32,000 nucleotides of DNA from an uncultured Lachnospiraceae bacterium (GCA_947053345.1 CAMRSM010000006.1:83370-115369); one strand, 5' to 3'; positions 2,128-23,751 are shown, numbered from the stretch's first letter. Made by a program: numbers and translations. The notes: generated from the sequence alone by a model not told the origin.

Positions 2128-3375
2128 TCAGTACAGCGAGGTGATCCCTTTGACCATCTCGTCCAAAATATCCTGCAAGCTCCTGCCATCCGGATTCCCT
2201 GCCGCCATAAGCTCCCCAAAATTCTGCGTCGGTGTCCAGTAACTTCCTGCGATCGACTGCAGGCTTGAAAACTCGGACTGTGCAAGGATGGCTTTGATCG
2301 CCGGAGCCGCCGCGATCTCCTCACTGGCCGATGCCCGGATATTGGAAGGTCCTTGTCCCCTGCGCTCAAAGCGAAGTGTCTGGTTTTCCTCGCTCGTTAT
2401 ATAAGCCGCCAGTTTCTGTGCCCATTTTCCCTGTTCGGAGTAAGCGTTTACACCCACCATCTTTTAACCGGCGAACGATGACATCTGCACCTGCTTTCCA
2501 CCGCAAGTGTAGGTCGGCAGCTTCGCCGCACCGTAATTCTCCCCCCAAATCTCCGCGACCAGGTTCGAATCCCACACACCGGAAACACCCGCGATTGCCG
2601 TGCCGTCCTTCACCTTATCCGCAAACAGCCCTGCCGCATCCAGCGCCCCGCTCTGCGCGACCGCGAGCATCCCCTTCGCGACATCCACACCCGTGATTTC
2701 CGTATCCGCCGCATTCCAGTTGCAGGCATTCGATACACCGTCAGGGTTTAGTCCGACCGTAAGGCCGGTCTCGCCAAAAAAGCTGTACAAATACCAGCCA
2801 GAGCTCCAGTCCATCATAAAATATTTGCCGTTCGCCGCAGCAACGCGCAGGATGCCGTCCAGCGTCTTCACATCCTCATCGCTCAGATAAGCTTTATTAT
2901 AATAAAGGAAATATCCATTGTCCGCCGTCATCGGATAGGCGTACATCACACCATTTACCGATGCTGCCTCACAGGCTGCTTCGATATTATCCGCAAGGAC
3001 TTTTGCCTGGTTCTCGACCGGGGCAAGAACCCCCGCCGCCACCATGACACGCAGCTGGTCATCCGCAAATGTAAACACATCCGGTCCGTCGTCTATGACC
3101 CCAAACAGCGCGTTCTTACAGTTGGATTCGCCCTGATACTCCACCGTAATGTCAAACTCCGCCTCCCCGGCATAACGGGCAGTAAATCCCGCAACCAGTT
3201 CATCCAAAAGTGCCGCGTCCTCCTCCGCCCCCCACAGGGTAAGCGAAACCGTCCCTTTCCCGGAAACTTCCGGCTTCCCCTGCGGCTGCTTTGCGCGGCC
3301 GTCACCGCATCCGCACAACCCGCAGACCGTCACAACACCTGCCAGCAAAATGGCAGGAAATCTGGTTTTTATCAT
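2128..3375 (-). pseudogene. Family-1 extracellular solute-binding lipoprotein (MalE/sugar-binding type) interrupted by a single in-frame TAA
   Basis: ORF 2464..3375 has a lipoprotein signal (ILLAGVVTVCGLCGCGDG) and an SBP-like body. ORF 2128..2460 is in the same frame and continues the fold (VGVNAYSEQGKWAQKLAAYITSEE...SYWTP...). The junction reads ...SSFAG-TAA-K-M-VGVNAY, so one stop codon at 2464-2466 splits a gene of about 415 codons. RBS GGAGGGGG precedes the ATG at 3375. Confidence 0.8.
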
Positions 3376-3498
3376 ACAATCCCCCTCCTATGGCTTTCAA
3401 TCTTACGGTTCTTATCCCCATGCATCCCGCAGGCCGATCCAAAACTTCCTCCCCTGCGGATGCCCGCCATCCGCCACCTGCGGATATTTACCGTTCAC

Positions 3499-8616: not shown

Positions 8617-10020
8617 CTAATTCGAATAGAGGCGGATTTCGTTGTCCTTCGCTTTGAGCGTAACGCCGGTCAGGACTTCCCGGAACTGGTACTGCAACCC
8701 GTTGATGGAAACGCGGGTTCCCTGATAAGCACACTGGCGTATGATAACCTTCGCCTCCTGCGCCAGCGCAATCTTTTCGAGAAGCACCTGGCGTTTCTGC
8801 ATATTTGCGTTCATCTGGCTGTCAAGTGATATCTTAAAGCGGGTCACCTGCATGCGCCTCTCCTGGGAGAACGCAGATTCCACTTCTTTCTCCTTACGCG
8901 TCTGCAGCAGCGAGAGGACATGCTTCGTCTTTTCCATCTGCTCCTCTAACTCCTTGTACTCCACTTCCAGTTTCTGCATACTCCGCTGGAGCTCGTCGCT
9001 CTTGCCCGCGATCAGTTCGGACTGCACCTCCGCGACATTTCCGACCGTGGTCGCCTCAAGCGTGCGCCCGGCATACACCACACCGCCTAAGATCACGCCA
9101 TGCCGCCCTGCCACGACAATATCCTCCCCCGCCTCCACCGTACAGCTTAAGACGGAATTCGCATTGACGTTTTTCCCTGCCGTGATCTTTGTCTGCTCAA
9201 AAAATTTGCCCGAAAGCGAACCTTTGCAAGTGACGACACCCCTGCCGCCGCCCTGCATGCCGCAGGTCAGCACGATATCCTTCCCCGCGTACAGTTCACA
9301 GGCTTCCACGGAACCCTGCACGGTGAGTGTGCCGCCCGCACGGATCTTGCGCCCGCTCGTCACACTGCCGTGAACCAGAACATCCCCGTCAAAATCAATG
9401 TCGCCGGTCAGCACATCAACATCCTCGCTGATCTCAAGGAAATTCTTGATCGTAATCCTGCCATTCTCAAATTCGATCCTGCCGCTCATCGTCGCCATAT
9501 AAGAACGCTTGTCGTCCGATGTACAAAAACCCTTGCCCTTGATCTCCGGGAGTTCTTTGCCATCCTTGCCCGCAACTTCCTTCCCCGCAAGGTCATAGCC
9601 GCTCTTGCCCTTTGTGGCCGGTGTGTAGCGGGCAATGATCGCCCCTTCCTTGACCGTCGGGATATTTGTCATGGTCCGGTAATCCACTGACCCGTCCGGC
9701 AAAATCCTCGGCTTTTTATTTGTCTCCGCATCAAACAGGAAATCAAAGTGCCCGTCCTGGCCGTCCAGCGCCGGTTCCCCCACCGCCACGAGGCACTTCA
9801 CATAATACAGCTTATCAGTAAGCATCCTTTTGATGCGCTCCTCGCGCACCCCCCTTTTGATCCCGCTTTTTGCAAGTATCTGTAAAATAATATCCAAATC
9901 ATAACTCACACTCTCCGGCGGTGGACATAGATACAATTCTGCCGTCATCCAATCGTCACTGATCAATACTTTGGAGCCTTTTTCAATCCATTCAACCAAT
10001 TCTGCATTCTTCATAAGCAT
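8617..10020 (-). CDS. FapA-family (DUF342) protein
   Basis: Characteristic DUF342 layout. The N-terminal region has ISDDWMTAELYLCPPPE and GIKRGV. A long beta-helix-like repeat region follows (LTGDIDFDGDVLVHGSVTSGRKIRAGGTLTVQGSVEACELYAGKDIVLTCG...VEAGEDIVVAGRHGVILGGVVYAG). The C-terminus is coiled-coil. Confidence 0.88.
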   Translation of the reverse strand: MLMKNAELVEWIEKGSKVLISDDWMTAELYLCPPPESVSYDLDIILQILAKSGIKRGVREERIKRMLTDKLYYVKCLVAVGEPALDGQDGHFDFLFDAETNKKPRILPDGSVDYRTMTNIPTVKEGAIIARYTPATKGKSGYDLAGKEVAGKDGKELPEIKGKGFCTSDDKRSYMATMSGRIEFENGRITIKNFLEISEDVDVLTGDIDFDGDVLVHGSVTSGRKIRAGGTLTVQGSVEACELYAGKDIVLTCGMQGGGRGVVTCKGSLSGKFFEQTKITAGKNVNANSVLSCTVEAGEDIVVAGRHGVILGGVVYAGRTLEATTVGNVAEVQSELIAGKSDELQRSMQKLEVEYKELEEQMEKTKHVLSLLQTRKEKEVESAFSQERRMQVTRFKISLDSQMNANMQKRQVLLEKIALAQEAKVIIRQCAYQGTRVSINGLQYQFREVLTGVTLKAKDNEIRLYSN

Positions 10021-10183: not shown

Positions 10184-12874
10184 TCACCCTTTTGTAAAAT
10201 TCCCCAGCCGCTCCGTGACCTGCGCGAGCATATCCGTATATTTTGCAAGCTTTTCCCGCTCCTCGGCAAGCTTCTTCTCCGGCGCTTTGTTCACAAAATT
10301 CGGATTGGCAAGCATCCCCGAAGCGCGCTTAATTTCGCCCTCCAGCCGCGCCTTCTCCTTTGTGAGGCGCTCGGTTTCCTTTGCGATATCCACAAGGTCG
10401 GCAAACGGCATATAGATCGCTGCCTGATGGATAACCGCCGAGACGGCATCATCGTCGATCCCCGCACGGTCCGTCTGGATCTTCACCTCGCACGCGTAGG
10501 CAAGCGGTGCGAAAAATACCTTGCCCGCCGTGAAAATTCCGCGCACCTTCTCGTTCTCGGAAACAATGAAAACAGTCGCCCTGCGGGACGGCGGCACGTT
10601 CATTTCCGTGCGCACGTTGCGGATGGCCTTGACCGCTTCCTTCATCAGCTCAACGGCTTCTTCCTCGTCGGCAAAATGCTTTGTTTCCTCGTACTTCGGC
10701 CACGCGGAGATCATGATGGACTCATTCTCCTCCAGCCTGCCCTCCGCCTCTTTCAGCGTGCAGAAAATCTCCTCGGTCACAAACGGCATATACGGGTGCA
10801 GAAGCTTTAACGCCGTCGTGAGCACCTCGCGCAGCGTAAAGATCGCTGCCGTCTTTGTCGCGGCATCCTCCCCGTACAGACGCGGCTTGACCATCTCGAT
10901 ATACCAGTCGCAGAATTCCTCCCAGATAAAATCGTAAATTTTGTCCGCCGCAATCCCCAGCTCAAATCGCTCCAGATTGTCCGTCACATCGCGCACCAGC
11001 TCGTTCGCCTTCGACAGAATCCAGCGGTCCGCGCTTGTCAGCGCCTTTTCTTCCACGGCGGATACTGCCGGGGCAAGCCCCTGTTCCCTCATCTGCGCCA
11101 TATTCATCATAATGAAGCGCGACGCGTTCCATACCTTGTTGGCAAAATTCCGGCTCGCCTCCACCCGCTCCCAGTAAAAGCGCATATCGTTGCCCGGCGC
11201 ATTTCCGGTAATCAGCGTAAAGCGCAGCGCGTCCGCGCCGTACTTGTCGATCACCTCCAGCGGGTCGATGCCGTTGCCGAGCGACTTGCTCATCTTGCGC
11301 CCCTGCGAATCGCGTACCAGGCCGTGGAAGAGCACGGTTTGAAACGGCTTTTCGCCCATGTGCTCATAGCCGGAGAAAATCATGCGGATGACCCAGAAGA
11401 AAATAATGTCGTACCCGGTCACCAGCACGCTCGTCGGGTAGAAATATTCCAGTTCTTTCGTCTTCTCCGGCCAGCCGAGCGTCGAGAACGGCCACAGCGC
11501 GGAGGAGAACCAGGTGTCAAGCGTATCCTCATCCTGACGGATGTGCGCGCTGCCGCATTTCGGGCAGGTCTTCGGCGCATTTTCCGTCTTCGCCACCGTA
11601 AGCTCTCCGCAGTCGCCGCAGTAATATGCCGGGATGCGGTGTCCCCACCAGAGCTGTCTGGAAATACACCAATCCTTGATATTGTCCGTCCAGTTGTAGT
11701 AAATCTTTTCCATGCGCTCCGGGATCAGCTCGACTTCCTTGTTTTTCACTGCTTCCACCGCCGGCTTGATCAGTTCGTCCATCTTCACAAACCACTGCGG
11801 CTTAATGAGCGGCTCCACCGTCGTGCCGCAGCGGTCATGCGTGCCGACATTGTGGGAGTAATCCTCAATGCGCACTAAAAGCCCCATTGCATCAAGCTCC
11901 TTCACAATCTGCTTTCTCGCCTCATACCGGTCCAGTCCCGCGAATTTCCCGCCGTTTTTGTTGATGGTCGCATCGTCGTTCATTATGTTGATCTCCGGCA
12001 GGTTATGACGCTTTCCGACCTCGAAATCGTTCGGGTCGTGCGCCGGTGTGATCTTCACCACGCCCGTGCCGAAATCCTTCTCGACATAAGCATCCGCAAT
12101 AACCGGAATCTCCCGGTCCACAAATGGAACCTTCACCGTCTTTCCGACCAGATGCGCGTAGCGCTCATCCTCCGGATGCACTGCCACCGCCGTATCGCCG
12201 AGCATCGTCTCCGGGCGGGTCGTCGCAAACTCAAGAAATTCTTCCGTCCCGACCACCGGATATTTGATGTGCCAGAAATGGCCTGCCTGTTCCTCGTAAT
12301 TCACCTCCGCGTCGGAGATGGAAGTCCTGCAGACCGGACACCAGTTGATGATGCGGGAACCCTTGTAGATCAGGCCTTTCTCATGCATTTTGCAGAAAAC
12401 TTCCTCAACCGCCTTCGAACAGCCTTCATCCATCGTGAAGCGCTCCCTGTCCCAGTCGCAGGAGGAACCCATTTTTTTCAGCTGCTGCACGATGCGTCCG
12501 CCGTACTCTTCCTTCCACGCCCATGCGCGCTTTAAAAAGCCCTCGCGCCCAAGCTCCTTTTTGTCGATGCCCTCTTTTTTCAGATGCTCGATGATCTTGA
12601 CTTCGGTCGCGATGCTCGCGTGGTCCGTGCCCGGTTGCCAGAGCGTGTTATAGCCCTGCATCCGCTTAAAGCGCACGAGGATATCCTGCATCGTATTGTC
12701 GAGCGCATGTCCCATGTGCAGCTGCCCCGTGATGTTTGGCGGCGGGATCACAATCGTAAACGGCTTTTTTGTCTCGTCCGGTTTTGCATGGAAATATTTT
12801 CTGCTTTCCCATTTTTCGTACAGCCGGTCTTCGATGTCCTTCGGATTATAGTTTTTTGCAAGTTCTTTCTGCAT
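10184..12874 (-). CDS. valS: Valine--tRNA ligase
   Basis: 896 aa with [15 protein letters not shown] (HIGH), [11 protein letters not shown] (KMSKS), a CP1 editing region and a C-terminal coiled coil. A T-box leader lies upstream. Confidence 0.97.
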
Positions 12875-12994
12875 GTCGATACCTGTCCTTTCTTTTTTGG
12901 TCTGTGTGATAATACATCTGTGAAATCCGCGCTTTTCCTGTCCGATATGCCGGGCAGCCGTCCGCCTCTGCTGACATTCTTCCTCCGGATGCCC

Positions 12995-13327
12995 GTGTGC
13001 ATAAAAAAATCCTCCGTCACAATAAGGACGGAGGACCGTGGTACCACCTTAATTCGCAGCAAAAGCTGCCTCTTACACACTTCGCGGTTTCATCTGTCAA
13101 AGCACTTCGTTCGCAACGATCTGGCCTTGCAAATGCCGGAAAGCATTCGTCTGTAACGGGACTTCCCGTAGCACCCTACCCGGAACTTCCGCTCAGGTGC
13201 TCTGTTTGAAAGCTACCTTCCACCGTTTTTCCTGAGACAGCCTTTCAGCCCCGTGCCGTCCTCTCTGCCAGTACCCGCGGTGTACTCCTCTTTCGCGCTA
13301 CATTTTTCATGTCTGCAGATTTGATAT
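12995..13327 (-). promoter_or_regulatory. T-box leader (tRNA-sensing riboswitch) of valS
   Basis: Minus strand contains stem-I elements (GCGCGAAAGAGGAGTA, CAGAGAG) and the conserved T-box sequence AATTAAGGTGGTACCACGG (13036-13054), which overlaps the 5' side of the terminator. GGAAGGUAGC contains a candidate GUA (Val) specifier, but that assignment is tentative. Confidence 0.85.
13003..13035 (-). terminator. T-box attenuator terminator
   Basis: Stem TCCTCCGTC / GACGGAGGA (9 bp) with loop CTTATTGT, followed by seven T on the minus strand (13003-13009). Confidence 0.8.
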
Positions 13328-13333
13328 GGTACT

Positions 13334-13362
13334 ATATTAAGCAATCTTCCCTAAATTGTCAA
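13334..13362 (-). promoter_or_regulatory. Sigma-A promoter of the valS T-box leader
   Basis: Minus strand reads TTGACA (13357-13362), a 17-nt spacer, then TAATAT (13334-13339). Confidence 0.6.
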
Positions 13363-13729
13363 GGGGAAAATATCATCCGAACCGCATTTTCTGCACCGCG
13401 TCTTTTTTTGCTTGTGTCCGTTTTGCATTCTGCTCATAAAAGCATCGTTCTTTCCCAAAAACGGATGTAATATCCTTTTTGCGGAAACCGGCTTCCTTCC
13501 ACTTCCGGTGCGCCGGCCGTGGCAGCCCCACCATCAAATCCCGATTGTGATTTGATGATTTTTCAGGGGGAGTATAAATCATTATATTTTAATGATAAAG
13601 CATCCGCCACCCCCAGAATATGCAATCCATCGGTTTTGGGATGGATTTGATTGATCTTTCGGGAAATATTCCGGTACGGGCAGATGCCGAAAACTCTTTC
13701 GAATTGCCGAATGAAAATCAATATTTCTG

Positions 13730-13758
13730 TTGACAACTATAAAATATACTGTTAAAAT
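13730..13758 (+). promoter_or_regulatory. Sigma-A promoter of the MetRS-like gene leader
   Basis: TTGACA (13730-13735), 17-nt spacer ACTATAAAATATACTGT, then TAAAAT (13753-13758). Confidence 0.6.
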
Positions 13759-13785
13759 TATTCAAAATAAAAGAAGGATAAGCCC

Positions 13786-13878
13786 ATGATGAAACATTCA
13801 ATTTCCATAAACAAAATGAACCAGCGACAGCAGCTTATTGTCAAAATTGGCAATGGGCTTTTTGTGTTGTGTTCATAA
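13786..13878 (+). CDS. Candidate 30-aa leader peptide MMKHSISINKMNQRQQLIVKIGNGLFVLCS
   Basis: The ORF lies between the promoter and a strong terminator. GAAGGA sits 7 nt upstream of ATG-ATG. Three Met codons are present (codons 1, 2 and 11). It is too short for the supplied ORF track. Confidence 0.4.
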   Translation: MMKHSISINKMNQRQQLIVKIGNGLFVLCS

Positions 13879-13907
13879 CAGGTGTCTTATCCTGGTCCAT
13901 CTGAACC

Positions 13908-13953
13908 AAACGGCCAAAAGCTCGGTACGAGTTTCTGGCCGTTTTTATTTTTT
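13908..13953 (+). terminator. Intrinsic terminator (attenuator) between the leader ORF and the MetRS-like gene
   Basis: AAACGGCCAAAAGCTCG-GTA-CGAGTTTCTGGCCGTTT forms a 17-position stem with one A-C mismatch and one G-U pair. It is followed by TTATTTTTT. Confidence 0.7.
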
Positions 13954-14069
13954 ATAATGTTTTCATCTATTTCCGAGCGTGTGCAAAAAATGCTTTCTGC
14001 CGGATGTGCGTCAGGGTTTGCGGGAATAATTTTCAAACACACTCCAGGGATTCGGAAAGGAGGTATACT

Positions 14070-16145
14070 ATGCCGGAACAGTCCGAGCTTCCCCAGCAAA
14101 AAGGGAAGCAAGTGATAACTAAAATAAATAACAGAAAGGAACATGATAATATGATATGTAAGCGGTTAACATCAAAGGAACGCCCGACATTTCCTAAACG
14201 GGCAATCATTACGGCAGGTATGCCTTACGGAAATAAAAATTTACATTTTGGACATGTCGGCGGTATGTTTATCCATGCGGACATTTTCGCGCGGTTTTTA
14301 AGAGACCGAATCGGAAAAGACAATGTTATCTTTCTTTCCGGAACCGATTGTTATGGTTCCCCGATCATGGAAAGCTACCGCAAGCTGCAGGAAGCAGGGT
14401 ATGAGGGTACTTTGGAAGATTATGTACGTGCTAACCATGAGAACCAGAAAAAAACCCTGGAAAACTATGGTATCCGTCTTGATTTCTTTGGGGCATCGGC
14501 TCTGGGAGAAGCAGGTTTAATCCATAAAGAGGTCTCCGCGCAAGTGTTCCAAACTTTATACAAAAACGGATATATTAAGAAAATGTCCATGCCTCAGTTC
14601 TATGATGAAGAGAAAAAGATGTTCTTAAACGGAAGGCAGGTTACAGGGAAATGTCCCATACCGGGATGCACTTCGGAAAAAGCATACGCCGATGAGTGTT
14701 CCTTAGGACATCAGTTTTTGCCTTCGGAACTGATCAATCCCGTCAGTAGCTTATCAAACAAAAAACCTGTCCTAAGAGATGTGGAAAACTGGTATTTCGA
14801 TTTAGAATATTGCATTCCCATAGTAAAGGAATACAATGATTTCTTACGGAAAAATACAAACACGCGCAAGTATCAGTTAGAAACCGTAGAAGAATTTTTG
14901 AAAAAGCCTTCCATCTATGTACCAAAAAAATATTTCGGCGACCTGGCAGAATTGGCAGCAAAGCTGCCCCCTCACAAATTAACCAATGAGGAAAAGAAAG
15001 CGTCTGTTGTGTTTGAATTTGAAAATCTGGATGACCGCGACAGGGCTAAAAACGTATTGGAAGCAGACGGCATTCATTATACTTCCGGAAAGACACTGGT
15101 TCCCTTCCGGCTGTCCGGCAATGTAGAATGGGGTATCCCATTCCCGGAGTGTGAAGGATTAGACGATCTCACCTTTTGGGTATGGCCGGAATCGCTATGG
15201 GCACCGATTTCCTTTACTTTAGCCTATTTGAAAGAGCATGGAAAAAAAGACAACTTATCGAGGTGGTGGTATGATGAAGAATCGAAGGTTTATCAGTTTA
15301 TCGGAGAAGATAACATTTATTTCTATGCCATCGCCCAGACAGGGTTATTTACCGGATTACAGGTTCCCAAAGGGGAAGTACCGGATATGGAGACCGTATA
15401 TTTATCCCACATCATAGCCAACCGGCATTTATTGTATATGGATACAAAAGCCAGCAGCAGCTCCGAATTAAAGCCTCCTGCGGCAGATGAATTGCTAAAT
15501 TATTACACGAAAGATCAGCTGCGGATGCATTTTATGAGCCTGGGTCTGTCTTCCAAAAGTGTAGGCTTTAAACCGCAGGTATTTATGAAAGAGGAAGACC
15601 GGGTTGGTGTCGATATGGTTCTGAAAGATGGCAATTTAATCACCAATGTGTTTAACCGTCTGATCCGAACCTGCTTCTACGCGATCCAGAATAATTGTGA
15701 CGGAAAAATCCCCGAGGGCGAGGTGGGGGAAGAAATAAAACTTATGGCAGAGAAAACGGTTCTTGATTATGAGCGTTATATGTATAACCATGAGTTCCAC
15801 CGTATCTCTTATGCTTTAGATGACTTTATCCGGGGGATAAACAAGCATTGGGTAAACAATGTAAAGATTGCAGATGCCACGAATAATGCAGAATCCAGAA
15901 AACAGCTTGTTATTGATTGCTTTTATGCCTGTAAGGTTATGGCAATCCTGGTTCATCCAATTGCGCCGGAGGGATGCGAAATGTTTCGGGAATATCTAAA
16001 TTTAGGAGAAGAATTGTGGGATTGGAACCATATATTTGAGCCGGTTTCTTTTTATATTGCGGACGTAAAGAATCATAAGCTCAAGTATCTGGAGCCGAGA
16101 GTCGATTTCTTTAAAAAGCATGATTGTCAGCTGGCGGAAATGTAG
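14070..16145 (+). CDS. Methionyl-tRNA-synthetase-like class I aaRS paralog (HIGH intact, KMSKS degenerate); alternative start at 14151
   Basis: By-eye alignment to E. coli-type MetRS runs along the catalytic and anticodon-binding domains (PYGNKNLHFGH, SGTDCYGSPI, QFYDEEKKMFLNGRQVTGKCP, PVLRDVENWYFDL, YQFIGEDNIYFY). The KMSKS position reads KASSS. AAAGGAGG lies 6 nt upstream of the ATG at 14070. ATG 14151 (MICKRL) would give a MetRS-like N-terminal length. Confidence 0.88.
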   Translation: MPEQSELPQQKGKQVITKINNRKEHDNMICKRLTSKERPTFPKRAIITAGMPYGNKNLHFGHVGGMFIHADIFARFLRDRIGKDNVIFLSGTDCYGSPIMESYRKLQEAGYEGTLEDYVRANHENQKKTLENYGIRLDFFGASALGEAGLIHKEVSAQVFQTLYKNGYIKKMSMPQFYDEEKKMFLNGRQVTGKCPIPGCTSEKAYADECSLGHQFLPSELINPVSSLSNKKPVLRDVENWYFDLEYCIPIVKEYNDFLRKNTNTRKYQLETVEEFLKKPSIYVPKKYFGDLAELAAKLPPHKLTNEEKKASVVFEFENLDDRDRAKNVLEADGIHYTSGKTLVPFRLSGNVEWGIPFPECEGLDDLTFWVWPESLWAPISFTLAYLKEHGKKDNLSRWWYDEESKVYQFIGEDNIYFYAIAQTGLFTGLQVPKGEVPDMETVYLSHIIANRHLLYMDTKASSSSELKPPAADELLNYYTKDQLRMHFMSLGLSSKSVGFKPQVFMKEEDRVGVDMVLKDGNLITNVFNRLIRTCFYAIQNNCDGKIPEGEVGEEIKLMAEKTVLDYERYMYNHEFHRISYALDDFIRGINKHWVNNVKIADATNNAESRKQLVIDCFYACKVMAILVHPIAPEGCEMFREYLNLGEELWDWNHIFEPVSFYIADVKNHKLKYLEPRVDFFKKHDCQLAEM

Positions 16146-16168
16146 GCAAAAAAGGGGGCGTGTTGCAA

Positions 16169-16208
16169 GCGGGCCGGGCCGGATTTTCCGGTTCTGCCCG
16201 CTGTTTGT
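16169..16208 (+). terminator. Possible terminator after the MetRS-like gene
   Basis: GCGGGC-CGGGCCGGATTTTCCGGTTCT-GCCCGC with inner stem CCGGA/TCCGG, followed by TGTTTGT. The T-tract is weak. Confidence 0.35.
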
Positions 16209-16603
16209 ATCGTATACTTTTTCTTCCCGCAGGCCAAGATCTGATGCAATCCCTGTATTTTGTGAAAGCTTCCCTTTCAGGCAATATACGAATGATCGGT
16301 CAAAAAGCAAACCCTCCCCTTCCAGACGGATCCGGGATTGATCCCTATTGAACAGCACCGCAAAAAATCATCCGTATGTTGCTGAAAAAAGTATGATAAT
16401 ACATGAAATCAATTTCCTGTTCAAGCCATCCCGCCTTAAAATGCCATCCATATTCATGTACAGGCATAGGAAAACCCCGTTTTCTGATTTTCTACAACCT
16501 TTCGCGGGAACACCGACATCCTTATCTCCCCAAAGCCTATTTGGTATCCCCATGTGCGCAGCTTCCCAGGCAAAGCTTTCTTGATTAAAAATCCCCCATC
16601 CCA

Positions 16604-17767
16604 TCACCACGAAATCCCATGCTCCCCGGCGATCTTCCCCACCAGATCCGCATACGCGCTGTTCCCCTCCGCGATCTGGGAGAGCTCCTCCCGGCACATC
16701 GCAAGCTGCTCATTGTTAAATTCCAGCCGCTCCCGGATCTTCTGCCTGCGGATGTTCAGATGGTGGCGCACTTCCACCATCTCCTTCTCGTCAAGCAAAG
16801 CCTCCGCCTGATAGAGCCAGATCTCCGCGTCCTTGACCTCCTCTTCCAAAAGCGCGTCCATCAGCTCCCGGTTGTAATGCTCCAAAAGCTCCGTGCTTTT
16901 TTTATAGCGCCGCTCCTCATCCTTCGTATGCACATATTTCTCCCAGACTGCCGTCAGTTCCCGGTAGCTTTCCACCTGATATTTCTCGTAAGCATAATCC
17001 AGCGCGTTCGTGCAGTTCACCAGCTTAATCTTGACTTTATTTGTCAGCTGGATCACCCGGTTTAACTTGTAATCCGACTCATGCAGCACCCTGCCGCAGC
17101 GCCCTGCCGCAGCCGTGATATACGCCACGGTTCCCGCCGCAAGGGCAAGCACCAGAAGCATTGGAAGGAGCATGTCCGTCCCGGTGATCATATTCATCGC
17201 CAAAAGCGTCAGGAACAAAAATACGACCAAAAAACCTGCCCCGAAAGCCAGGTTCCTCAAAAAAATCTTCTTGTCCGCCGCGGATTCCTTTTCGTACTCG
17301 ATGACCGCGCGCTCCCCGTCCAGCTGCCTTAAATCCGAATGGATCATCTCGCGGTACTGCTCCTGCTCATAAATATTTTTCAGCGCGTCCGGTATTTCCC
17401 GCTCATAACGCTCCATCGCGCGGTACTGCTGCACCGGTACGCGGTCACTGCTGTTTTGGTATTTCACACGCTCCTTTGTCAGGTTGATGATGTTGCGCGC
17501 CGCGTCATTTAAATTCTGGCGGGCGGCAGGATCCATGCGCTCAATCTTCTGCATATCCGTAAGGTAGGAGGTCACCGCCTCGTACTCTCTCTGCGAGATG
17601 CCGGCCTGCCGTCCGAGCTCTTCCATCTGCTCACAGACCACCCCGACGATCTGTGCCGCCTCCTCCCTGCTAAGCCCTTTTTTACTGCGCTTTAACTGGC
17701 GCAGCGCCTCCTTCGCATTAAGAGCCTGCTCTTCCTGCTGCTGTTTTCTTTTTCGCCTTCTCATCAC
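16604..17767 (-). CDS. Hypothetical coiled-coil membrane protein with a central two-TM hairpin (gene 4 of the operon)
   Basis: 387 aa with a basic N-terminus (MMRRRKRKQQQ). Two hydrophobic helices are FGAGFLVVFLFLTLLAMNMI and LLPMLLVLALAAGTVAYITAAA, flanked by charged helical regions. RBS AGGAGG lies 5 nt upstream of the ATG. Confidence 0.75.
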   Translation of the reverse strand: MMRRRKRKQQQEEQALNAKEALRQLKRSKKGLSREEAAQIVGVVCEQMEELGRQAGISQREYEAVTSYLTDMQKIERMDPAARQNLNDAARNIINLTKERVKYQNSSDRVPVQQYRAMERYEREIPDALKNIYEQEQYREMIHSDLRQLDGERAVIEYEKESAADKKIFLRNLAFGAGFLVVFLFLTLLAMNMITGTDMLLPMLLVLALAAGTVAYITAAAGRCGRVLHESDYKLNRVIQLTNKVKIKLVNCTNALDYAYEKYQVESYRELTAVWEKYVHTKDEERRYKKSTELLEHYNRELMDALLEEEVKDAEIWLYQAEALLDEKEMVEVRHHLNIRRQKIRERLEFNNEQLAMCREELSQIAEGNSAYADLVGKIAGEHGISW

Positions 17768-17909: not shown

Positions 17910-18746
17910 TTACCCCGCCACCTTCCGGTACTTCTCCTTCAAACGCTCCAAAAGCGCGTCCATGCACTGATAATATTCCGCGATCCGCCCTTCCTCATGC
18001 AGCTTTTTCAGCCGTTCAAGCTCTTGAAATTCCCCCGTCTGTTCCGCGGCATTCCTCGCGGCATAAACCTCCTGCGCCACCTGTGCCGTCACCTCGCTGC
18101 GGGGCATCAGGGCTTTCAATTCCTGATCCATCCGCTCCTTCTGCCCGGAGAGCGTAAGTGCTATAAAATACTGCCGCAGTGTATCGTCAGCGCCGTTGCG
18201 CTCGTACGCATCCCGGAAATATTCCACCGCCTGGCTGATATTCCCGGCATGCATCTTCACCACACCAACGTTGTGCAAAAGGTCACCAAAGACATCGCCC
18301 GGAAGCTCCGCCAATCCCCCGGAAAGTAAGATCTCCTGGTACATCGCACCGGCCTCGCGCTCCCTGCCTTCCTCCCAGAGCTTGTCCGCCTTCCATTTTT
18401 TTCTCTCCAAAGGGCTCTTCGCATAAAACGCGTCGTAATCCTTCAAAAACGCTTTGATCTCCTGCGCGTCATAATAATCCGCACTGCAAAAACACGCGAC
18501 CATCACATCCTTCGCACCCGCGCGCGCATCGACAAGATGGCGCAGGTACTCCGCACGCTCGCCAAGCCCGAGCTCCTGACCGATGAAACGGATAAACTCC
18601 TCGGAATAAAGCTCCTCCTGAATCTCAAAGGCATTGTGGTAGAGGACATGACAAAGCTCCTCAATGCTCGAAACCCGGTCGCCGGTCGCCGCAAAAACAT
18701 AAGGCCGCCCTGCCTCCCTCCCCGCACAAAGTATCACCCTTCCCAT
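17910..18746 (-). CDS. Hypothetical helical (TPR-like) protein (gene 3 of the operon)
   Basis: Start was chosen at MGRVILCAG (ATG 18744-18746), 31 nt after the upstream stop. The longer track ORF overlaps the preceding gene. Helical repeat-like segments include AGAMYQEILLSGG and ISQAVEYFRDAYERNG. No family is recognised. Confidence 0.7.
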   Translation of the reverse strand: MGRVILCAGREAGRPYVFAATGDRVSSIEELCHVLYHNAFEIQEELYSEEFIRFIGQELGLGERAEYLRHLVDARAGAKDVMVACFCSADYYDAQEIKAFLKDYDAFYAKSPLERKKWKADKLWEEGREREAGAMYQEILLSGGLAELPGDVFGDLLHNVGVVKMHAGNISQAVEYFRDAYERNGADDTLRQYFIALTLSGQKERMDQELKALMPRSEVTAQVAQEVYAARNAAEQTGEFQELERLKKLHEEGRIAEYYQCMDALLERLKEKYRKVAG

Positions 18747-18777
18747 GTCTTTCCCCTGCCTTTCCGTATCATTTCCG

Positions 18778-20031
18778 TTACAATATCTGTTCCCAGATGC
18801 GGTGCGTCGTCCCTGCCCTGCCAAAACCGCTATCCCGAAGCTGCACCACCGGCGTGTCCCTGTCCACATAAAAAAGCCTGAGCTCCAAACGTACCGTTTT
18901 ATTTTCACGCTGCATCAGATGGTCAAGGATCATGACCTCATGCAAAGGTTCACGCCGCATGACATGGTCAACCAAAAATTCCACCTCGCTCGTATCATCA
19001 AGAACCAAGCGCAGCGACCGCTTCACCGTGCGGTAATCGCTCCCCGCCTCGGAGAGCAGGAAATACTGTTCCTTCGCATCATGGTACGCCTTGACCATAA
19101 TGTCCTCTCGCGTCATATTCTCCCCGAGAAATAAGCAGTCCTGCCCCTCAATGTGCATATGCGCCGCATAACAGGCTCCCCGCGCAAAGAGATTCTGCCC
19201 GTAAAATACTCTTCTGCCATCGCATAGTTTCTGCAGTGCCCCCATCACCCAGCCATCCAAGAAACCGGAACCCGTCACAAAAACCGAGGTAACCGGCTGG
19301 TTCGCAAGCTGCTGCTGCACCATATTGTAAAACCAGTATGCCCGGCGTTCCGCTTCCTCCCTGCATATCCCGCCGCCAAAATATTCTTCCGTCAGATCCC
19401 CATGTTTTGACATGACCGAAAGCGGCTCACGTTTTCTCGAAAAATACACGCGGTCATAATAAAAATATTCATCACCACACTCAAACAGAATGGTATCATT
19501 TTTCCAGAGTTCCTGCCGCATATTGACAATGTAGCGCATAAAGCATTCGGTGTGCGACAAGAGCAAAACCCTCTCCCTGCCGACACCCAGCCGCGCCAAA
19601 ATGTCCGTGAGCACACCACCCGCCGCAAGTGCCCCCTCCGGAAGCGTAACCGCGAGCATGGTGACGGCACTGCCACCCTGCTGCCCCATCAGGGCAAGGA
19701 TCCTCCTCAAATATTCCTCCATCAGAAATTCCGCGCGGTACGTCTCCCCTCCCAACGAGAGCTCCTCCCCGGAGAGCAGCCGCCTTAAAAGCCCGTACGC
19801 GCCAAGTGCCTCCCCCCTTGCAACAACGCGCGCCGCCTCCTTCCCGTAGAGCCATTCCCCGTCCGCAGTGCGCCTTGCAAGCACGACCGGCATCGAAAGT
19901 TCCTGCCCGTCCCTGTCGCAGCACACCGGTTCCGGTTCATTTTTCCCGGCATTGTAGCGGCTGATCAGTGCTGACTCCCAGCCCAGGTCCAACCCGTAAC
20001 AAAACACCTCTTCCAACTCTGTCTTCTCCAT
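18778..20031 (-). CDS. Divergent Hsp70/actin-fold (ASKHA-like) protein with degenerate nucleotide-binding motifs (gene 2 of the operon)
   Basis: Order and spacing of YGLDLGWES (compare DnaK IGIDLGTTNS), AVTLPEG (ITVPAYF), VLLLSHTECFMRY (LRIINEPTAAALAY), ILFECGDEYFYYD (in place of LVFDLGGGTFD) and VFVTGSGFLDGWV (VLLVGGSTRIP). A C-terminal beta-rich domain follows. Confidence 0.8.
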   Translation of the reverse strand: MEKTELEEVFCYGLDLGWESALISRYNAGKNEPEPVCCDRDGQELSMPVVLARRTADGEWLYGKEAARVVARGEALGAYGLLRRLLSGEELSLGGETYRAEFLMEEYLRRILALMGQQGGSAVTMLAVTLPEGALAAGGVLTDILARLGVGRERVLLLSHTECFMRYIVNMRQELWKNDTILFECGDEYFYYDRVYFSRKREPLSVMSKHGDLTEEYFGGGICREEAERRAYWFYNMVQQQLANQPVTSVFVTGSGFLDGWVMGALQKLCDGRRVFYGQNLFARGACYAAHMHIEGQDCLFLGENMTREDIMVKAYHDAKEQYFLLSEAGSDYRTVKRSLRLVLDDTSEVEFLVDHVMRREPLHEVMILDHLMQRENKTVRLELRLFYVDRDTPVVQLRDSGFGRAGTTHRIWEQIL

Positions 20032-20049
20032 TTCTTCCGTCCTGCTGCC

Positions 20050-23000
20050 TTACCTGCGCCCGTTGCGGATCCGGAACAGATGATCCGCCTCGTAATCCGT
20101 CCGGATATAATTTTCAAGCAGCTTCATCACAGCCTCGTCATCCTGCATCTGGCGCGCCGCAAGAATCAGGTTCAGTATATCGTAACGGCTTTTCCCGTCG
20201 TGCACCACATCGTCCGCCGACACTGCCGCCGTGCTCTCCGTGATCACCGTCTGCCCGTCCGCCTCCTCCGCTATGTAATACTGCATACTTTCCTCCCGGA
20301 ACAAAACAAAACCCGCAGTAAATATTCCATGACAGATATTTTTCATCTCGCGCTCCGAAAACTGCTCCTGATCCCCAATGCGGTAATGCAGCACGACCCG
20401 GTGCGACGGATCCGTGTGATATTCCACAAAAGTCTTGTCGTACAACTCCTCCGGCAGCTGCACAAAATCCTCAAACCGCCGGAAAAACGGGAGCAGGATG
20501 CCTTTTTTTAAGATGCCGGAAAGCTTGTACTCAAGAAATTTTTTCTGCCGTTCCGAAAGCCCCTCCTCCTGCGCATAATGTTTTAAAAGGGCCAGCGTGC
20601 AGATGTCATTTTCCTCCAGTGAGACTTCCCGCTCCATCAGCTCGAAGACCTCCGGTGAAATCATCCGGTCATTCAGCAGGAATTTATATGCATAGTAATT
20701 TAAGAATGCCCGGATCAATTTCCGGTTTGTGCCGTAGCGGTAATAACTCATAAATACGCCCTGCGCGTTCCCGGTACAGCTCTCGGAAAACAAGATCTGC
20801 CCCAGCAGGCTCTCTTCCAGGCTTTCCGTATCAAGTTCTTCCGCGTGCGCCGTCTTCCAGAGCGCGTACATCCCCTCGGTCGAACCGTGATAAAATCGGC
20901 ACAGGTAAGAAAGCAATTCCTTGTCACAGCGCCCGCACTCAAAAACATAATATGCCAGAAACAGCAAAAACGGATCCGCCTCCGGCTGCTCTGCCGCCTC
21001 GAGGCAGCGCAGTGCCAGCTTATTCAGCCACTTTACCTCAATCTCCTCCGTGCCGAAACATTGCAGGGCTTCCCTCGCGCGCCCGTCAAAACCGCGCATA
21101 ATAAAAAAATGAATGATGCGCGCCCGCTCCTTTTTTGTAAATTTTTCAAGCCGGATCTTCCGCAGGTAATGCTCAAACAGATCCCCTTCATAATTTTCGT
21201 AATAATACTCCATCAAAAAGCGGACGCAGGATTCCCGTTCTTCCTCGGATACCGCTGCATTTTCCGCCAGAAGCCTGCTCAGTTCTTCCGGCTGGCTGCC
21301 GTATTTTTGGTATTTGTTCTCCTCCTCTTTCAGATGCAGCAAAAGCGGCAGCTGTGTACAGCCGTCATCATAGCATGCCTGCAGGTTCTGCTCCTGAAAA
21401 ACAAGCGGTTCCACGGTTACATGGACATCGCCCGAACGGCTGCTCTTTAAATTGACCGCCGGATAGCAGGCTCCCTCCCCATCGACCAAAAAGACCTCCG
21501 CATCCTCGGTGTAGAGCATGATCACTGCCTCCCCGCGCACGACCGGCACATACGAGGGTTCCTCCTGCCCCGGATGGAACACTGCCACACGCGCAAATCT
21601 GCCCTGCTTTACCGAGAGCTTATGCGCGAACGCAACTTTCGGCAGGCAGGCGAGTGCCTCCTTCGGCATACCGTCCCGGTATACCTCGTTATAGATGAGC
21701 GCAAGGGAATCATTCACCGCCCCCTTCGCGATCTGCTCCCCCGCAAACGCCTCCATACCCTGCCGGTATTTCGGGTACAGTGCCGCATGCTCCGACTTAT
21801 GGCGGATCAGATCCGCATACAGCATCGCCTTTTTCCGGTCACTCAATTCGCAGCGGTAGGAAAAATATAGGAAGATGTTTGGATGGATCGGCTCCTTCTC
21901 CTCTTCCCCGCGGCAATACATATAATATTCCGGAAGCTGTGCGATTTTTAACTGGCGTGTGACCGCCCGGTGAAACCATATGTAATCGCGCGCTTCCCTG
22001 CGCCCGCTCCGTATGATCAGCGCGCACACCGCGCCAAGCAGCTCATCGTCCGGCCTGTTATGATAACAGCGCCCGAGCACCTGATACAAAAGCGGCCTAA
22101 TCCCCTTCTCCCGCTGGGCCAGATATACCACCCGGCGCGCCAGCTCCGCGTCCACACAGCCGTTGGATAGCGCCAGCTTTAACACATGCAGTTCAAATCC
22201 TCCAAGTTCTTTTAGCAGCGAGGCATCTTTGCGCAGGATACGCACCGCTTCCGCGAGCAGAAGCACATGATAGCCGTACTCCGCAGTAAATTCCCGTATC
22301 GCAAAAAACCTGTGGGCATTGTCCCTGTACTCCCCGTCAAGCAGGATAAGGCAGCGGAAAAGTTCGGGATTTTCAGGATTTTCACGGTACAATCCACGGA
22401 TTTTCTCCACGGCGGTCTTCTCGGACATCCGCTCCTTCTTCTGTATCGCCTGAAGGTAATAGAATGTACCGAGCAGTCCGGCATCCCCGGCAAATTCCTT
22501 CTCCCCAAGCAGCGAAATCCCCTCCTTCACAGCAGCATCCTTGCCTGCAAGCTGCCAGAAATATAGCTGGCAGAGCTTTCCCGCGTATCCGTCCCTCTGC
22601 GTCCCCTCCGCTCCGCGCAGGCGTAAAAGCGGCTCCTTTGCCTGTTCCGCGCAATGTTTTGCGTTCCCGTCCGCGCAATAATAGGCAAGGAATATCCGGA
22701 ACAGCTCACAGACCGCCCTCTTCCCCGCCTGCCTCTGCCGCCGCTGTTCCGCCCTGCGGTGCGGAACCACACATGTCAGCCGCGCGGCAAGTTCCTTTTT
22801 CGGAGTCAGCACACGGATCTTCGTTTCCCTTTTTCCCGCCGGGACATCCTGTACACGGACGATGAAATCAACCACGAGCCGGTCGTCCACAAAATCCCCC
22901 GCCGAAAAAGACGTTCTTGAGAGCTGGATGAAACCGGCATCGCATGCGATCTCGCCCTCCACATAACCCCAGCCGCTCTTGCATACGACAAGCTGATCCT

Positions 23001-23751
23001 GAAAATTATAGCCGCCCGCCTCATACGAAAACTCCGTTTTTTCAAGCCGCAGGTCAACCGCCGCCTTTTTTCCTGTCGCGATCAAAAACTCCTCCACCGC
23101 CTGCCCCTTACGCCCCGTCAAGGCCAGGACCCGGTGCAAAAGTTCATAGCGCTTATCATGGTAAAAAATCACGCGCGCAAAATCCCTGCCAAAAAATAAA
23201 GCTTCCGCCATGTCCGGATCTGCCTTTGCCAGACTTGCAAACTGAAACAGGTCGCGGACACTCTCCTCCCCTGCCGCAAGCGCCGGATAGTGAACCTGCA
23301 CCTCGTATGGCAGATTCTCTTCCCCCGCATCCGTCACAAAAACCAGCTTCCCCTCATAGCGGTCACCTGCACCCGCATGTTCCGCATGGAAAACAAAGGG
23401 AATCACGAACTCCTCCCCCACAAACTGTTCCTTCGGCAAAGCAAACAGCAGGCTGTCCGGAAAGATCACACCCTTCATCCTGCGACCCGCGTCATTCGTC
23501 ACGCGGATACTTCCCTCATACGCCCGCCCCGCCTCCGTGTGGATCAGCAGTTTCTCCGGCTCAATGCACAGCCTCGGCATCTGGTATTCAAACTTTTCTT
23601 TCGCTAACTGCCCGATTTTCTCTTTCAACCGATACACTCCCCGATCTTTCGTTTTCAGGCTTCCCCCTCTTTTCCTGTCCCGCTGCCGCGGCAGGATTTC
23701 TGCCTGTAAATATCCACTGTCTAGTATAACGTAATCATAGTCCAAAATCAA
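20050..23751 (-). CDS. Giant (about 1233 aa) hypothetical protein: two N-terminal beta-sandwich-like modules plus a long helical-repeat body (gene 1 of the operon)
   Basis: Uninterrupted 3.7-kb ORF with coding-like composition. The track start is TTG at 23749-23751 behind AGGAAG (8-nt spacing). The first in-frame ATG is codon 58 (MPRLCIEPEKL) and lacks a good RBS. No catalytic motif is recognised. Confidence 0.85.
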   Translation of the reverse strand: MILDYDYVILDSGYLQAEILPRQRDRKRGGSLKTKDRGVYRLKEKIGQLAKEKFEYQMPRLCIEPEKLLIHTEAGRAYEGSIRVTNDAGRRMKGVIFPDSLLFALPKEQFVGEEFVIPFVFHAEHAGAGDRYEGKLVFVTDAGEENLPYEVQVHYPALAAGEESVRDLFQFASLAKADPDMAEALFFGRDFARVIFYHDKRYELLHRVLALTGRKGQAVEEFLIATGKKAAVDLRLEKTEFSYEAGGYNFQDQLVVCKSGWGYVEGEIACDAGFIQLSRTSFSAGDFVDDRLVVDFIVRVQDVPAGKRETKIRVLTPKKELAARLTCVVPHRRAEQRRQRQAGKRAVCELFRIFLAYYCADGNAKHCAEQAKEPLLRLRGAEGTQRDGYAGKLCQLYFWQLAGKDAAVKEGISLLGEKEFAGDAGLLGTFYYLQAIQKKERMSEKTAVEKIRGLYRENPENPELFRCLILLDGEYRDNAHRFFAIREFTAEYGYHVLLLAEAVRILRKDASLLKELGGFELHVLKLALSNGCVDAELARRVVYLAQREKGIRPLLYQVLGRCYHNRPDDELLGAVCALIIRSGRREARDYIWFHRAVTRQLKIAQLPEYYMYCRGEEEKEPIHPNIFLYFSYRCELSDRKKAMLYADLIRHKSEHAALYPKYRQGMEAFAGEQIAKGAVNDSLALIYNEVYRDGMPKEALACLPKVAFAHKLSVKQGRFARVAVFHPGQEEPSYVPVVRGEAVIMLYTEDAEVFLVDGEGACYPAVNLKSSRSGDVHVTVEPLVFQEQNLQACYDDGCTQLPLLLHLKEEENKYQKYGSQPEELSRLLAENAAVSEEERESCVRFLMEYYYENYEGDLFEHYLRKIRLEKFTKKERARIIHFFIMRGFDGRAREALQCFGTEEIEVKWLNKLALRCLEAAEQPEADPFLLFLAYYVFECGRCDKELLSYLCRFYHGSTEGMYALWKTAHAEELDTESLEESLLGQILFSESCTGNAQGVFMSYYRYGTNRKLIRAFLNYYAYKFLLNDRMISPEVFELMEREVSLEENDICTLALLKHYAQEEGLSERQKKFLEYKLSGILKKGILLPFFRRFEDFVQLPEELYDKTFVEYHTDPSHRVVLHYRIGDQEQFSEREMKNICHGIFTAGFVLFREESMQYYIAEEADGQTVITESTAAVSADDVVHDGKSRYDILNLILAARQMQDDEAVMKLLENYIRTDYEADHLFRIRNGRR

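Follow-up and report, generated by a model that had tools for sequence, protein, structure and literature searches.

The subject of this analysis is a leader in a 32,000-nucleotide stretch of DNA from an uncultured Lachnospiraceae bacterium (GCA_947053345.1, CAMRSM010000006.1:83370-115369; hereafter the window, with positions counted from its first letter). The leader lies upstream of a gene for a protein related to methionyl-tRNA synthetase (MetRS), and it is probably a classical ribosome-mediated transcription attenuator of the trp/his/pheM type with glutamine codons as its control codons. It combines a short open reading frame (ORF) that is constrained as coding sequence and lies near a promoter, a cluster of Gln codons in the first pairing segment, a terminator before the structural gene, and an antiterminator that excludes this terminator (Table 1). 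These elements, their conservation, the coding signature, the constraint on the Gln codons, the alternative pairings with their energies and the Gln-specific T-boxes of orthologous genes were all computed here. A preliminary description of the region had proposed ribosome-mediated attenuation keyed to methionine codons. The class of mechanism stands, given a conserved ORF and an antiterminator that is 96% paired across related leaders, but the keying to methionine does not, the invariant run being one of Gln codons.

The consensus promoter, the 30-codon ORF with its ribosome-binding site and the 17-position hairpin with its U-tract all lie where the preliminary description had put them. The promoter scored 11 out of 12 and was the top promoter-like site in a scan of positions 12500 to 17000; its -10 hexamer TAAAAT occupies 13753-13758 and the TG extension 13750-13751. 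Transcription would start near 13765, about 7 nt past the -10 box. The promoter pattern TTGAC...CTGnTAnAAT is retained in most of 43 aligned loci, and conservation starts at the -35 box. The terminator hairpin begins 29 nt beyond the leader stop, closes a 3-nt loop with a predicted energy of -22.2 kcal/mol, and is followed by the tract TTTTTATTTTTT, which reaches 13953. A simple terminator scan did not list this hairpin, perhaps because of the single A.C mismatch in its stem (13917/13935), which is peculiar to the window among the aligned leaders. The promoter scan listed no promoter-like site between the terminator and the MetRS-like gene. The gene has the strong Shine-Dalgarno (SD) sequence previously described, although at 14056-14063 rather than 14057-14064, and its ATG is at 14070, not 14071; a second in-frame ATG follows at 14151.

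Table 1. Features of the leader and of the loci compared with it
Feature	Position	Strand	Details and basis
Sigma-70-type promoter	13730..13758	+	-35 TTGACA 13730-13735, 17-nt spacer, extended -10 TGtTAAAAT 13750-13758
Leader SD GAAGGA (13773-13778) with segment A (13775-13785)	13773..13785	+	Segment A pairs with segment B, 3' of the leader stop
Leader ORF, 30 codons and TAA (13876-13878)	13786..13878	+	ATG 13786; peptide MMKHSISINKMNQRQQLIVKIGNGLFVLCS; sequence reading
Control codons CAG CGA CAG CAG (Q R Q Q)	13822..13833	+	Family consensus CAG CAA CAG CAG (QQQQ); codon census of 57 leaders
Segment 1, 5' strand of the 1:2 hairpin	13816..13843	+	Minimum free energy (MFE) fold and RNAalifold consensus; 1:2 at -27.6 kcal/mol in the window
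Segment 2	13848..13876	+	Pairs with segment 1 or, via 13855-13875, with segment 3 (antiterminator); folds and conservation
Segment B, after the leader stop	13881..13893	+	Complementary to the leader SD region (segment A); fold and covariation
Segment 3: terminator 5' arm (13908-13924) and TGAAC (13902-13906)	13902..13924	+	Antiterminator partner of segment 2; energies and pairing
Segment 4: terminator 3' arm (13928-13944) and U-tract (13942-13953)	13928..13953	+	Energy and covariation
Regulated MetRS-like gene, 691 aa, class I tRNA-ligase family	14056..16145	+	SD AAAGGAGG 14056-14063, ATG 14070, ORF 14070-16145; Pfam tRNA-synt_1g
valS T-box	13307-13021	-	91.2 bits, full-length; valS at 10184-12874 (-) downstream
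Gln-specifier T-boxes of orthologous genes (L048-L051, L055, L057, L081, L098, L125, L139, L141 and others)			

Related loci were taken from two scans, one of species-representative genomes (80 loci) and one of metagenomes (80 further loci). Across the genome-scan loci the MetRS-like protein is 80-93% identical in Acetatifactor and other Lachnospiraceae, 67-68% in one group, 59% in Vallitalea and about 51% in Oscillospiraceae. Using blastn, the window leader was matched in 44 of the 80 genome-scan loci at 74-89% DNA identity, from the -35 box through the U-tract. A cultured bacterium with the leader is Acetatifactor muris DSM 23669 (L021). Using nhmmer, the leader was found in 67 loci in total, which gave 56 distinct sequences and, with that of the window, the 57 leaders of alignment A3; an earlier alignment held the window and 42 others. 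Conservation of the small ORF and the hairpin in related loci, on which the preliminary description had made its proposal depend, was thus found in 67 loci. The spacer between the terminator and the SD of the gene varies in length and sequence among related loci.

Several patterns of change indicate translation of the leader ORF. None of the 57 distinct leaders interrupts it, and its length is 29 to 35 codons; the indels inside it (3, 3, 6, 9, 15 and 15 nt) are every one a multiple of three; and its stop codon interchanges between TAA, TGA and TAG and is displaced in two leaders, by one and by four codons. A structured RNA that binds a protein or a ligand, in effect a novel riboswitch in which the ORF is incidental, would fit the nucleotide-level conservation and the strong structure of the leader, the transcript 13765-14075 folding with a z of -3.3 against dinucleotide shuffles. 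We give this reading very little credence: the frame is kept through six independent indels, stop swaps and synonymous Gln swaps, and no Rfam family matched at E <= 10 beyond noise.

In the region 13810-13876, third codon positions are not more variable than first and second positions, and a constraint at the RNA level must therefore be added to that of the reading frame. This bears on a further possibility, that the unit encodes a functional 30-residue peptide (a small protein or a precursor resembling those of ribosomally synthesized and post-translationally modified peptides) or is an independent small-RNA gene, with the terminator setting stoichiometry only. Such a gene would be expected to have what is seen here, namely its own strong promoter, an SD, a conserved ORF and an efficient-looking terminator. 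It is nevertheless highly improbable, given that synonymous sites are as conserved as non-synonymous ones, that the N-terminus is variable, and that the terminator 5' arm is complementary to the 3' part of the ORF in 96% of alignment cells. The unit is also always directly upstream of the same gene, where elsewhere a T-box or nothing stands instead, and this gene has no listed promoter-like site of its own after the terminator.

In the aligned leaders, the sole invariant codon feature is the run N-Q-Q-Q-Q-L. The run reads CAG CAA CAG CAG in 43 of the 57 leaders, CAG CAG CAA CAG in five and CAG CAA CAA CAG in three, while two leaders have five Gln codons. Four or five Gln codons are accordingly present in 53 leaders. 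The remaining four have one non-Gln codon: CAG CGA CAG CAG in three (the window, L052 and L028) and CAG CAA CAG CTG in one. Synonymous CAA/CAG swaps relative to the consensus run were found in 8/57 leaders, and changes within the run are nearly all synonymous or Gln-adding, which is true also of the most divergent leaders, MVYLSDSKAIMNQQQQLIVNPDNGLFGMRS and MGYISKNMTNMNQQQQLSIKFDSRLFELCS.

The Met codons behave differently. According to the preliminary description, methionine would be the sensed residue; ribosomes would then stall at Met codons 1, 2 and 11 upon a shortage of Met-tRNA or inhibition of MetRS, and so induce a MetRS paralogue. The downstream protein does belong to the MetRS superfamily, and consensus positions 8 and 11 are occupied by Met in most leaders. 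However, the tandem ATG-ATG is a minority trait, found in the window and in 7 of the 42 other leaders of the first alignment, and several leaders have I, T, S, R, G or L in place of Met-8 and Met-11. Together with the folds, T-boxes and protein features described below, this makes methionine scarcely credible as the signal.

The MFE fold and the RNAalifold consensus concur on a long 1:2 hairpin followed by the 3:4 terminator, both of which RNAalifold recovers independently. On A3 this OFF structure is 89.1% paired, as against 36-44% when the partners are slid, and 16 of its pairs change on both sides, a number reached by 0-3 of 500 shuffles. Over the 57 leaders, pairing in the terminator reaches 95.4%, with 5 compensatory pairs, and the A:B helices are 66-82% paired with 8 pairs altered on both sides. 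The divergent leaders L115-L121 retain A:B complementarity with other sequence (GGGAGC / GTTCCC, as read from the alignment).

The alternative is a 19-bp helix between segment 2 (13855-13875) and 13902-13923, with a predicted energy of -17.8 to -20.6 kcal/mol in the window, which takes up 14 of the 17 nt of the terminator 5' arm. It was obtained with a transcript ending at 13927 and a ribosome mask over 13810-13846, which places a Gln codon in the A site; a transcript cut at 13927 was used because full-length constrained folds do not discriminate between the models. The core of this antiterminator is the almost invariant GGGCTTTT (13855-13862), which encodes GLF. Its 8-bp pairing with AAAAGCTC (13916-13923), on which the preliminary description had remarked, does exist and lies within the longer, conserved 2:3 helix. 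Across the 57 leaders this helix is 96.1% paired, compared with 24-52% when slid, and its mean z is -3.4, shuffled versions of segment 2 reaching -10.9 kcal/mol with segment 3. Mean energies over the same leaders are -23.5 +/- 2.9 kcal/mol for 1:2, -20.4 +/- 2.2 for 2:3 and -22.7 +/- 2.2 for 3:4, and the three mutually exclusive helices are predicted to be of balanced stability.

The position of the ribosome was modelled with constrained folds. Segment 1 continues for 10 nt beyond the last Gln codon, a geometry that suits the model. With the mask at the stop codon, segment 2 is hidden and the terminator persists, as the preliminary description had expected. Its other expectation, that a ribosome at the early Met codons would free the antiterminator, was not borne out: with a mask at codons 1-2 or at Met-11, the hairpin 13832-13859 stays intact and the antiterminator strand is sequestered, which is a further argument against Met codons as the site of stalling. 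TTTTT follows this same inner hairpin, which the scan classed as terminator-like. By analogy with the trp leader, the hairpin and its U-run are a plausible pause site for RNA polymerase.

From these elements we infer the timing, the pausing and the response to tRNA-Gln charging as follows. The leader ORF would be translated while polymerase advances, the polymerase probably pausing at the hairpin 13832-13859 with its U-run. When Gln-tRNA(Gln) is plentiful, the ribosome would reach the TAA at 13876 and cover segment 2, so that the terminator at 13908-13944 forms and transcription stops near 13950. If no ribosome has loaded, segments 1 and 2 would pair and the terminator would likewise form. When Gln-tRNA(Gln) is scarce, the ribosome would stall at codons 13-16 (13822-13833) and cover segment 1, leaving segment 2 free. 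The free segment 2 (13855-13875) would then pair with 13902-13923 and sequester the terminator 5' arm, permitting read-through into the MetRS-like gene. The A:B helix, in which the leader SD pairs with the sequence after the stop, probably curbs re-initiation on leaders whose translation has been completed.

Several points weigh against this account of glutamine-controlled attenuation. Transcription, termination and read-through are predicted here from sequence and folds. Covariation, which the preliminary description had proposed as a check, supports the OFF structure and the terminator but not the antiterminator: the 2:3 helix is nearly without compensatory change over the 57 leaders, with 2 pairs, not above shuffles. 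Two pairing partners and the coding function all constrain segment 2. The full-length constrained MFE always contains the terminator, and regulation must therefore be kinetic. The run in the window itself holds three Gln codons only (QRQQ), and some conservation in the Gln run reflects structure, because its nucleotides also lie in helix 1:2. Finally, the substrate of the MetRS-like protein is predicted only from its regulation and from substitutions in its pocket.

The RNA pairing also bears on the idea that the peptide itself is the sensor, its C-terminal NQQQQLIVK-DNGLF-LCS stalling the ribosome on a small molecule or drug in the manner of erm, cat and vmlR leaders or of TnaC and SpeFL. The C-terminal two thirds of the peptide are indeed well conserved, and the low-GC stretch (about 43% against about 54%) in a variable context is typical of acquired resistance genes. 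Yet the conserved residues correspond to nucleotides needed in 1:2 and 2:3 pairing, as with GLF and GGGCTTTT, which makes peptide-mediated arrest unnecessary as an explanation. Free variation is seen in roughly the first seven residues and at residues 21, 22, 27 and 29; the last two, which are outside the pairing constraints, can be G, V, E, R, A or W (residue 27) and C, R, G or S (residue 29). The tRNA-sensing T-box of orthologous genes also argues for tRNA charging as the signal. We therefore consider an arrest peptide improbable. The suggestion of drug-dependent stalling in the preliminary description found no specific support, and no evidence of drug involvement was found for the window leader.

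For the glutamine-controlled attenuator, independent support comes from the orthologous genes. The leader itself gave no T-box match in Rfam over 13700-14070, even at E <= 10, and neither the stem I specifier loop nor the UGGN bulge of RF00230 was found in it. Rfam searches of the whole window at gathering scores and of 12800-14250 at E <= 10 gave nothing credible in the leader, the sole real match being the minus-strand valS T-box; the absence of a T-box or riboswitch core that had been noted earlier is thereby confirmed. In orthologues at 55-75% identity the leader ORF is absent, and a complete T-box lies directly upstream instead. Rfam scores for these T-boxes are 103.9-126.2 bits in L048-L051, L055 and L057 and 100-111 bits in L098, L139 and L141, where the gathering score for the family is 93. 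A profile built from six of them found about 30 more, bringing the total to about 36 orthologous genes. In about 25 metagenome loci and in the Oscillospiraceae, whose homologues are about 51% identical, the gene is preceded by a plain promoter and by neither leader ORF nor T-box.

In the Stem I alignment, the 8 nt on the 3' side of the specifier loop read GAA-N-CAA-G in most loci and GAA-N-CAG-G in ten (L087, L089, L098, L139, L141, L143, L144 and L146-L148), where N is A, C or G and the codon is at positions 5-7. The valS T-box in the window aligns to the same loop positions with GAAGGUAG, reading GAA-G-GUA-G, and its positions 5-7 are GUA (Val). Since this validates the frame, the specifier on the MetRS-like gene is Gln. 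Three other specifiers were considered and rejected: AUG (Met) is partly in a helix and not conserved (ACG in L145, UCG in L156, GUG in L137); AAG (Lys) alternates with AGG, giving a Lys/Arg mix, and has no conserved purine after it; and the codon directly after GAA, the layout of glyQS T-boxes, would be Pro, Ala or Thr depending on the orthologue. That the T-boxes read CAA or CAG, while the AUG beside the loop is not conserved, counts again against methionine. The T-box lineages would thus sense uncharged tRNA-Gln directly, whereas the lineage of the window would sense the supply of Gln-tRNA(Gln) via the ribosome.

The valS T-box was missed by the default search because its score is slightly below the gathering score. 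On the valS side there are also a promoter-like site (13362-13334) and a terminator-like hairpin (13037-13008). Transcription of valS and of the MetRS-like gene diverges, and each of the two has its own tRNA-charging sensor, of different kinds.

Some further features of the orthologous T-boxes were observed. Nine T-boxes were inspected in their Rfam alignments; among these, the bulge is UGGC in 3/3 loci with a CAG specifier (L098, L139 and L141) and UGGU in five of the six with a CAA specifier, the exception being L048. This split suggests different tRNA-Gln isoacceptors or discriminator bases across hosts. An argument from the match of UGGU or UGGC to position 73 of tRNA-Gln was dropped, a single tRNA-Gln gene being to hand (tRNA-Gln(UUG) in L079, complement of 3308-3382), which has A73. 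In L048-L051 (for example 3960-4003 in L048), the terminator 3' arm CAAGGGGTG holds the sole SD-like sequence, and TTTTTT alone separates this arm from the ATG; for this reason the T-box of these loci may gate translation initiation besides termination.

The regulated protein matches Pfam tRNA-synt_1g, the MetRS-type catalytic domain, at 2.8e-68, and its best solved relative by profile alignment is Pyrococcus abyssi MetRS (1rqg). The class I signatures are present, with HIGH as HFGH and with KASSS aligned to the KFSTS loop of the P. abyssi enzyme. All NCBIfam MetRS models, however, score far under their cut-offs (NF001100, the best, at 245.8 versus 587 bits; TIGR00398 at 208 versus 336). Aligned by profile with E. 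coli MetRS chains, from sequence only, the protein keeps W253 but has F for Y260, Y for H301 and E or Q for W305, besides an insertion of three residues; we take these four residues to be part of the methionine pocket of the E. coli enzyme. The scores below the cut-offs and the replacement of these aligned residues are the last of the points that disfavour control by methionine.

The usual rule is that the control codons of an attenuator match the substrate of the regulated enzyme. Two unrelated devices on orthologous genes read tRNA-Gln, and the residues aligned with Met contacts are replaced across the family. For these reasons we tentatively raise, as a possibility that we would not yet favour, that the protein is a MetRS-derived class I synthetase working on tRNA-Gln, either a new kind of glutaminyl-tRNA synthetase (GlnRS) or another tRNA-Gln-charging enzyme, distinct from the GlnRS derived from glutamyl-tRNA synthetase and from GatCAB. 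Met and Gln side chains are nearly isosteric, and a switch of specificity from Met to Gln would be chemically plausible on that account.

The family comprises 6013 proteins at E <= 1e-20 and occurs in Lachnospiraceae, Oscillospiraceae, Vallitalea, Cellulosilyticaceae and metagenome-assembled genomes labelled Clostridium; the two listed matches with a source name are both labelled 'class I tRNA ligase family protein' in NCBI records. The clade with the leader peptide has a conserved 27-residue N-terminal extension, MPEQSELPQQKGKQVITKINNRKEHDN (14070-14150), before a MICKRL... start that is the counterpart of the T-box clade's start (MISKRL...). In the annotation of many database homologues the second ATG is taken as the start, which gives 664 rather than 691 aa.

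Attenuation by translated leaders is established for pheST and for the trp, his, leu and thr operons. The leader described here resembles E. coli pheST (pheM) and the proteobacterial trp, his, leu and thr leaders in having a translated leader with a run of control codons, exclusive 1:2, 2:3 and 3:4 helices and a terminator before the gene, and it resembles pheST also in that the regulated gene is of the aminoacyl-tRNA synthetase type. It differs from all of these in its Gln codons, its host from the Firmicutes (Lachnospiraceae) and its additional SD-sequestering A:B helix, and from pheST in that the regulated enzyme is a diverged MetRS-like protein. The comparison with pheST is made also by Seliverstov et al. 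(2005; PMC1262725), whose predictions include classical attenuators in front of the Streptomyces genes trpS and leuS. Those, too, are leader-peptide attenuators of single synthetase genes outside the Proteobacteria and were found by comparative genomics, but they are actinobacterial and use Trp or Leu codons. The same authors stated that synthetase genes of the Firmicutes are T-box regulated 'and none by classical attenuation' (PMC1262725). The window leader is an exception to this statement, a classical attenuator on a synthetase-like gene in a group where T-box control alone had been assumed.

The Gln T-box of the orthologues (RF00230) shares with the window leader the gene family, the position directly upstream, the terminator/antiterminator output and the putative signal, tRNA-Gln charging, but it senses uncharged tRNA by RNA directly, without translation. 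The two offer a clean natural case in which T-box and leader-peptide control stand in for each other on orthologous genes, with regulation lost entirely in some lineages. Such T-boxes are also uncommon in published surveys. Gln specifiers are among the least common in the T-box database TBDB (PMC7778990). Wels et al. reported that all but one of the genomes they analysed lack GlnRS and that the amidotransferase genes have no T-box (PMC2494555). Attenuators of the erm/cat/vmlR type also place a leader ORF and a terminator before a horizontally mobile gene and let stalling decide on read-through, but they depend on drug-dependent arrest at a peptide motif, and they neither repeat a single codon nor have orthologues with a tRNA-sensing counterpart.

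In the literature searched, we found no description of a Gln-codon attenuator and none of a MetRS-like enzyme tied to tRNA-Gln. As far as that literature goes, this appears to be the first Gln-codon leader-peptide attenuator. Both devices point to tRNA-Gln, and not tRNA-Met, for a widespread family of 'class I tRNA ligase family' proteins, and the enzyme probably acts with tRNA-Gln instead of methionine. An unannotated paralogue thereby becomes a candidate, open to direct test, for a new way of making Gln-tRNA(Gln).

The GC content is 42-44% over 13001-16000, which covers the intergenic region, the leader and the MetRS-like gene, as against 52-57% in the flanks and about 54% in the window. Neighbouring genes are not conserved among the related loci, and synteny gave no operon hint to function: valS is adjacent to the MetRS-like gene only in the window, L011 and L160, and the downstream 387-aa ORF was found in no other compared locus. 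Leader and gene behave as one unit, since the leader stays with the gene while the flanks differ. The drop in GC and the lack of synteny suggest that the two were acquired or moved as one cassette.

Among the other genes near the leader, the minus-strand neighbours at 17910-23751 and 8617-10020 encode DUF5716 and DUF5717 proteins (417 and 1233 aa) and a FapA-domain protein. Two further neighbouring ORFs, of 387 and 332 aa, are without a family match, and no neighbour looks functionally tied to the leader. In L098, a DUF3800-XI RNA motif (RF02975, 54.3 bits) at 35-83 lies about 1.1 kb upstream of the T-box and is unrelated to the leader. L151 (about 600-684) retains the leader promoter and SD but has no leader ORF or terminator before the gene, which follows directly; a deletion that left expression constitutive may account for this. 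The distance from the end of the leader to the upstream ATG of the gene is about 470 nt in L020 and L106 (3343-4082), far more than in the window.

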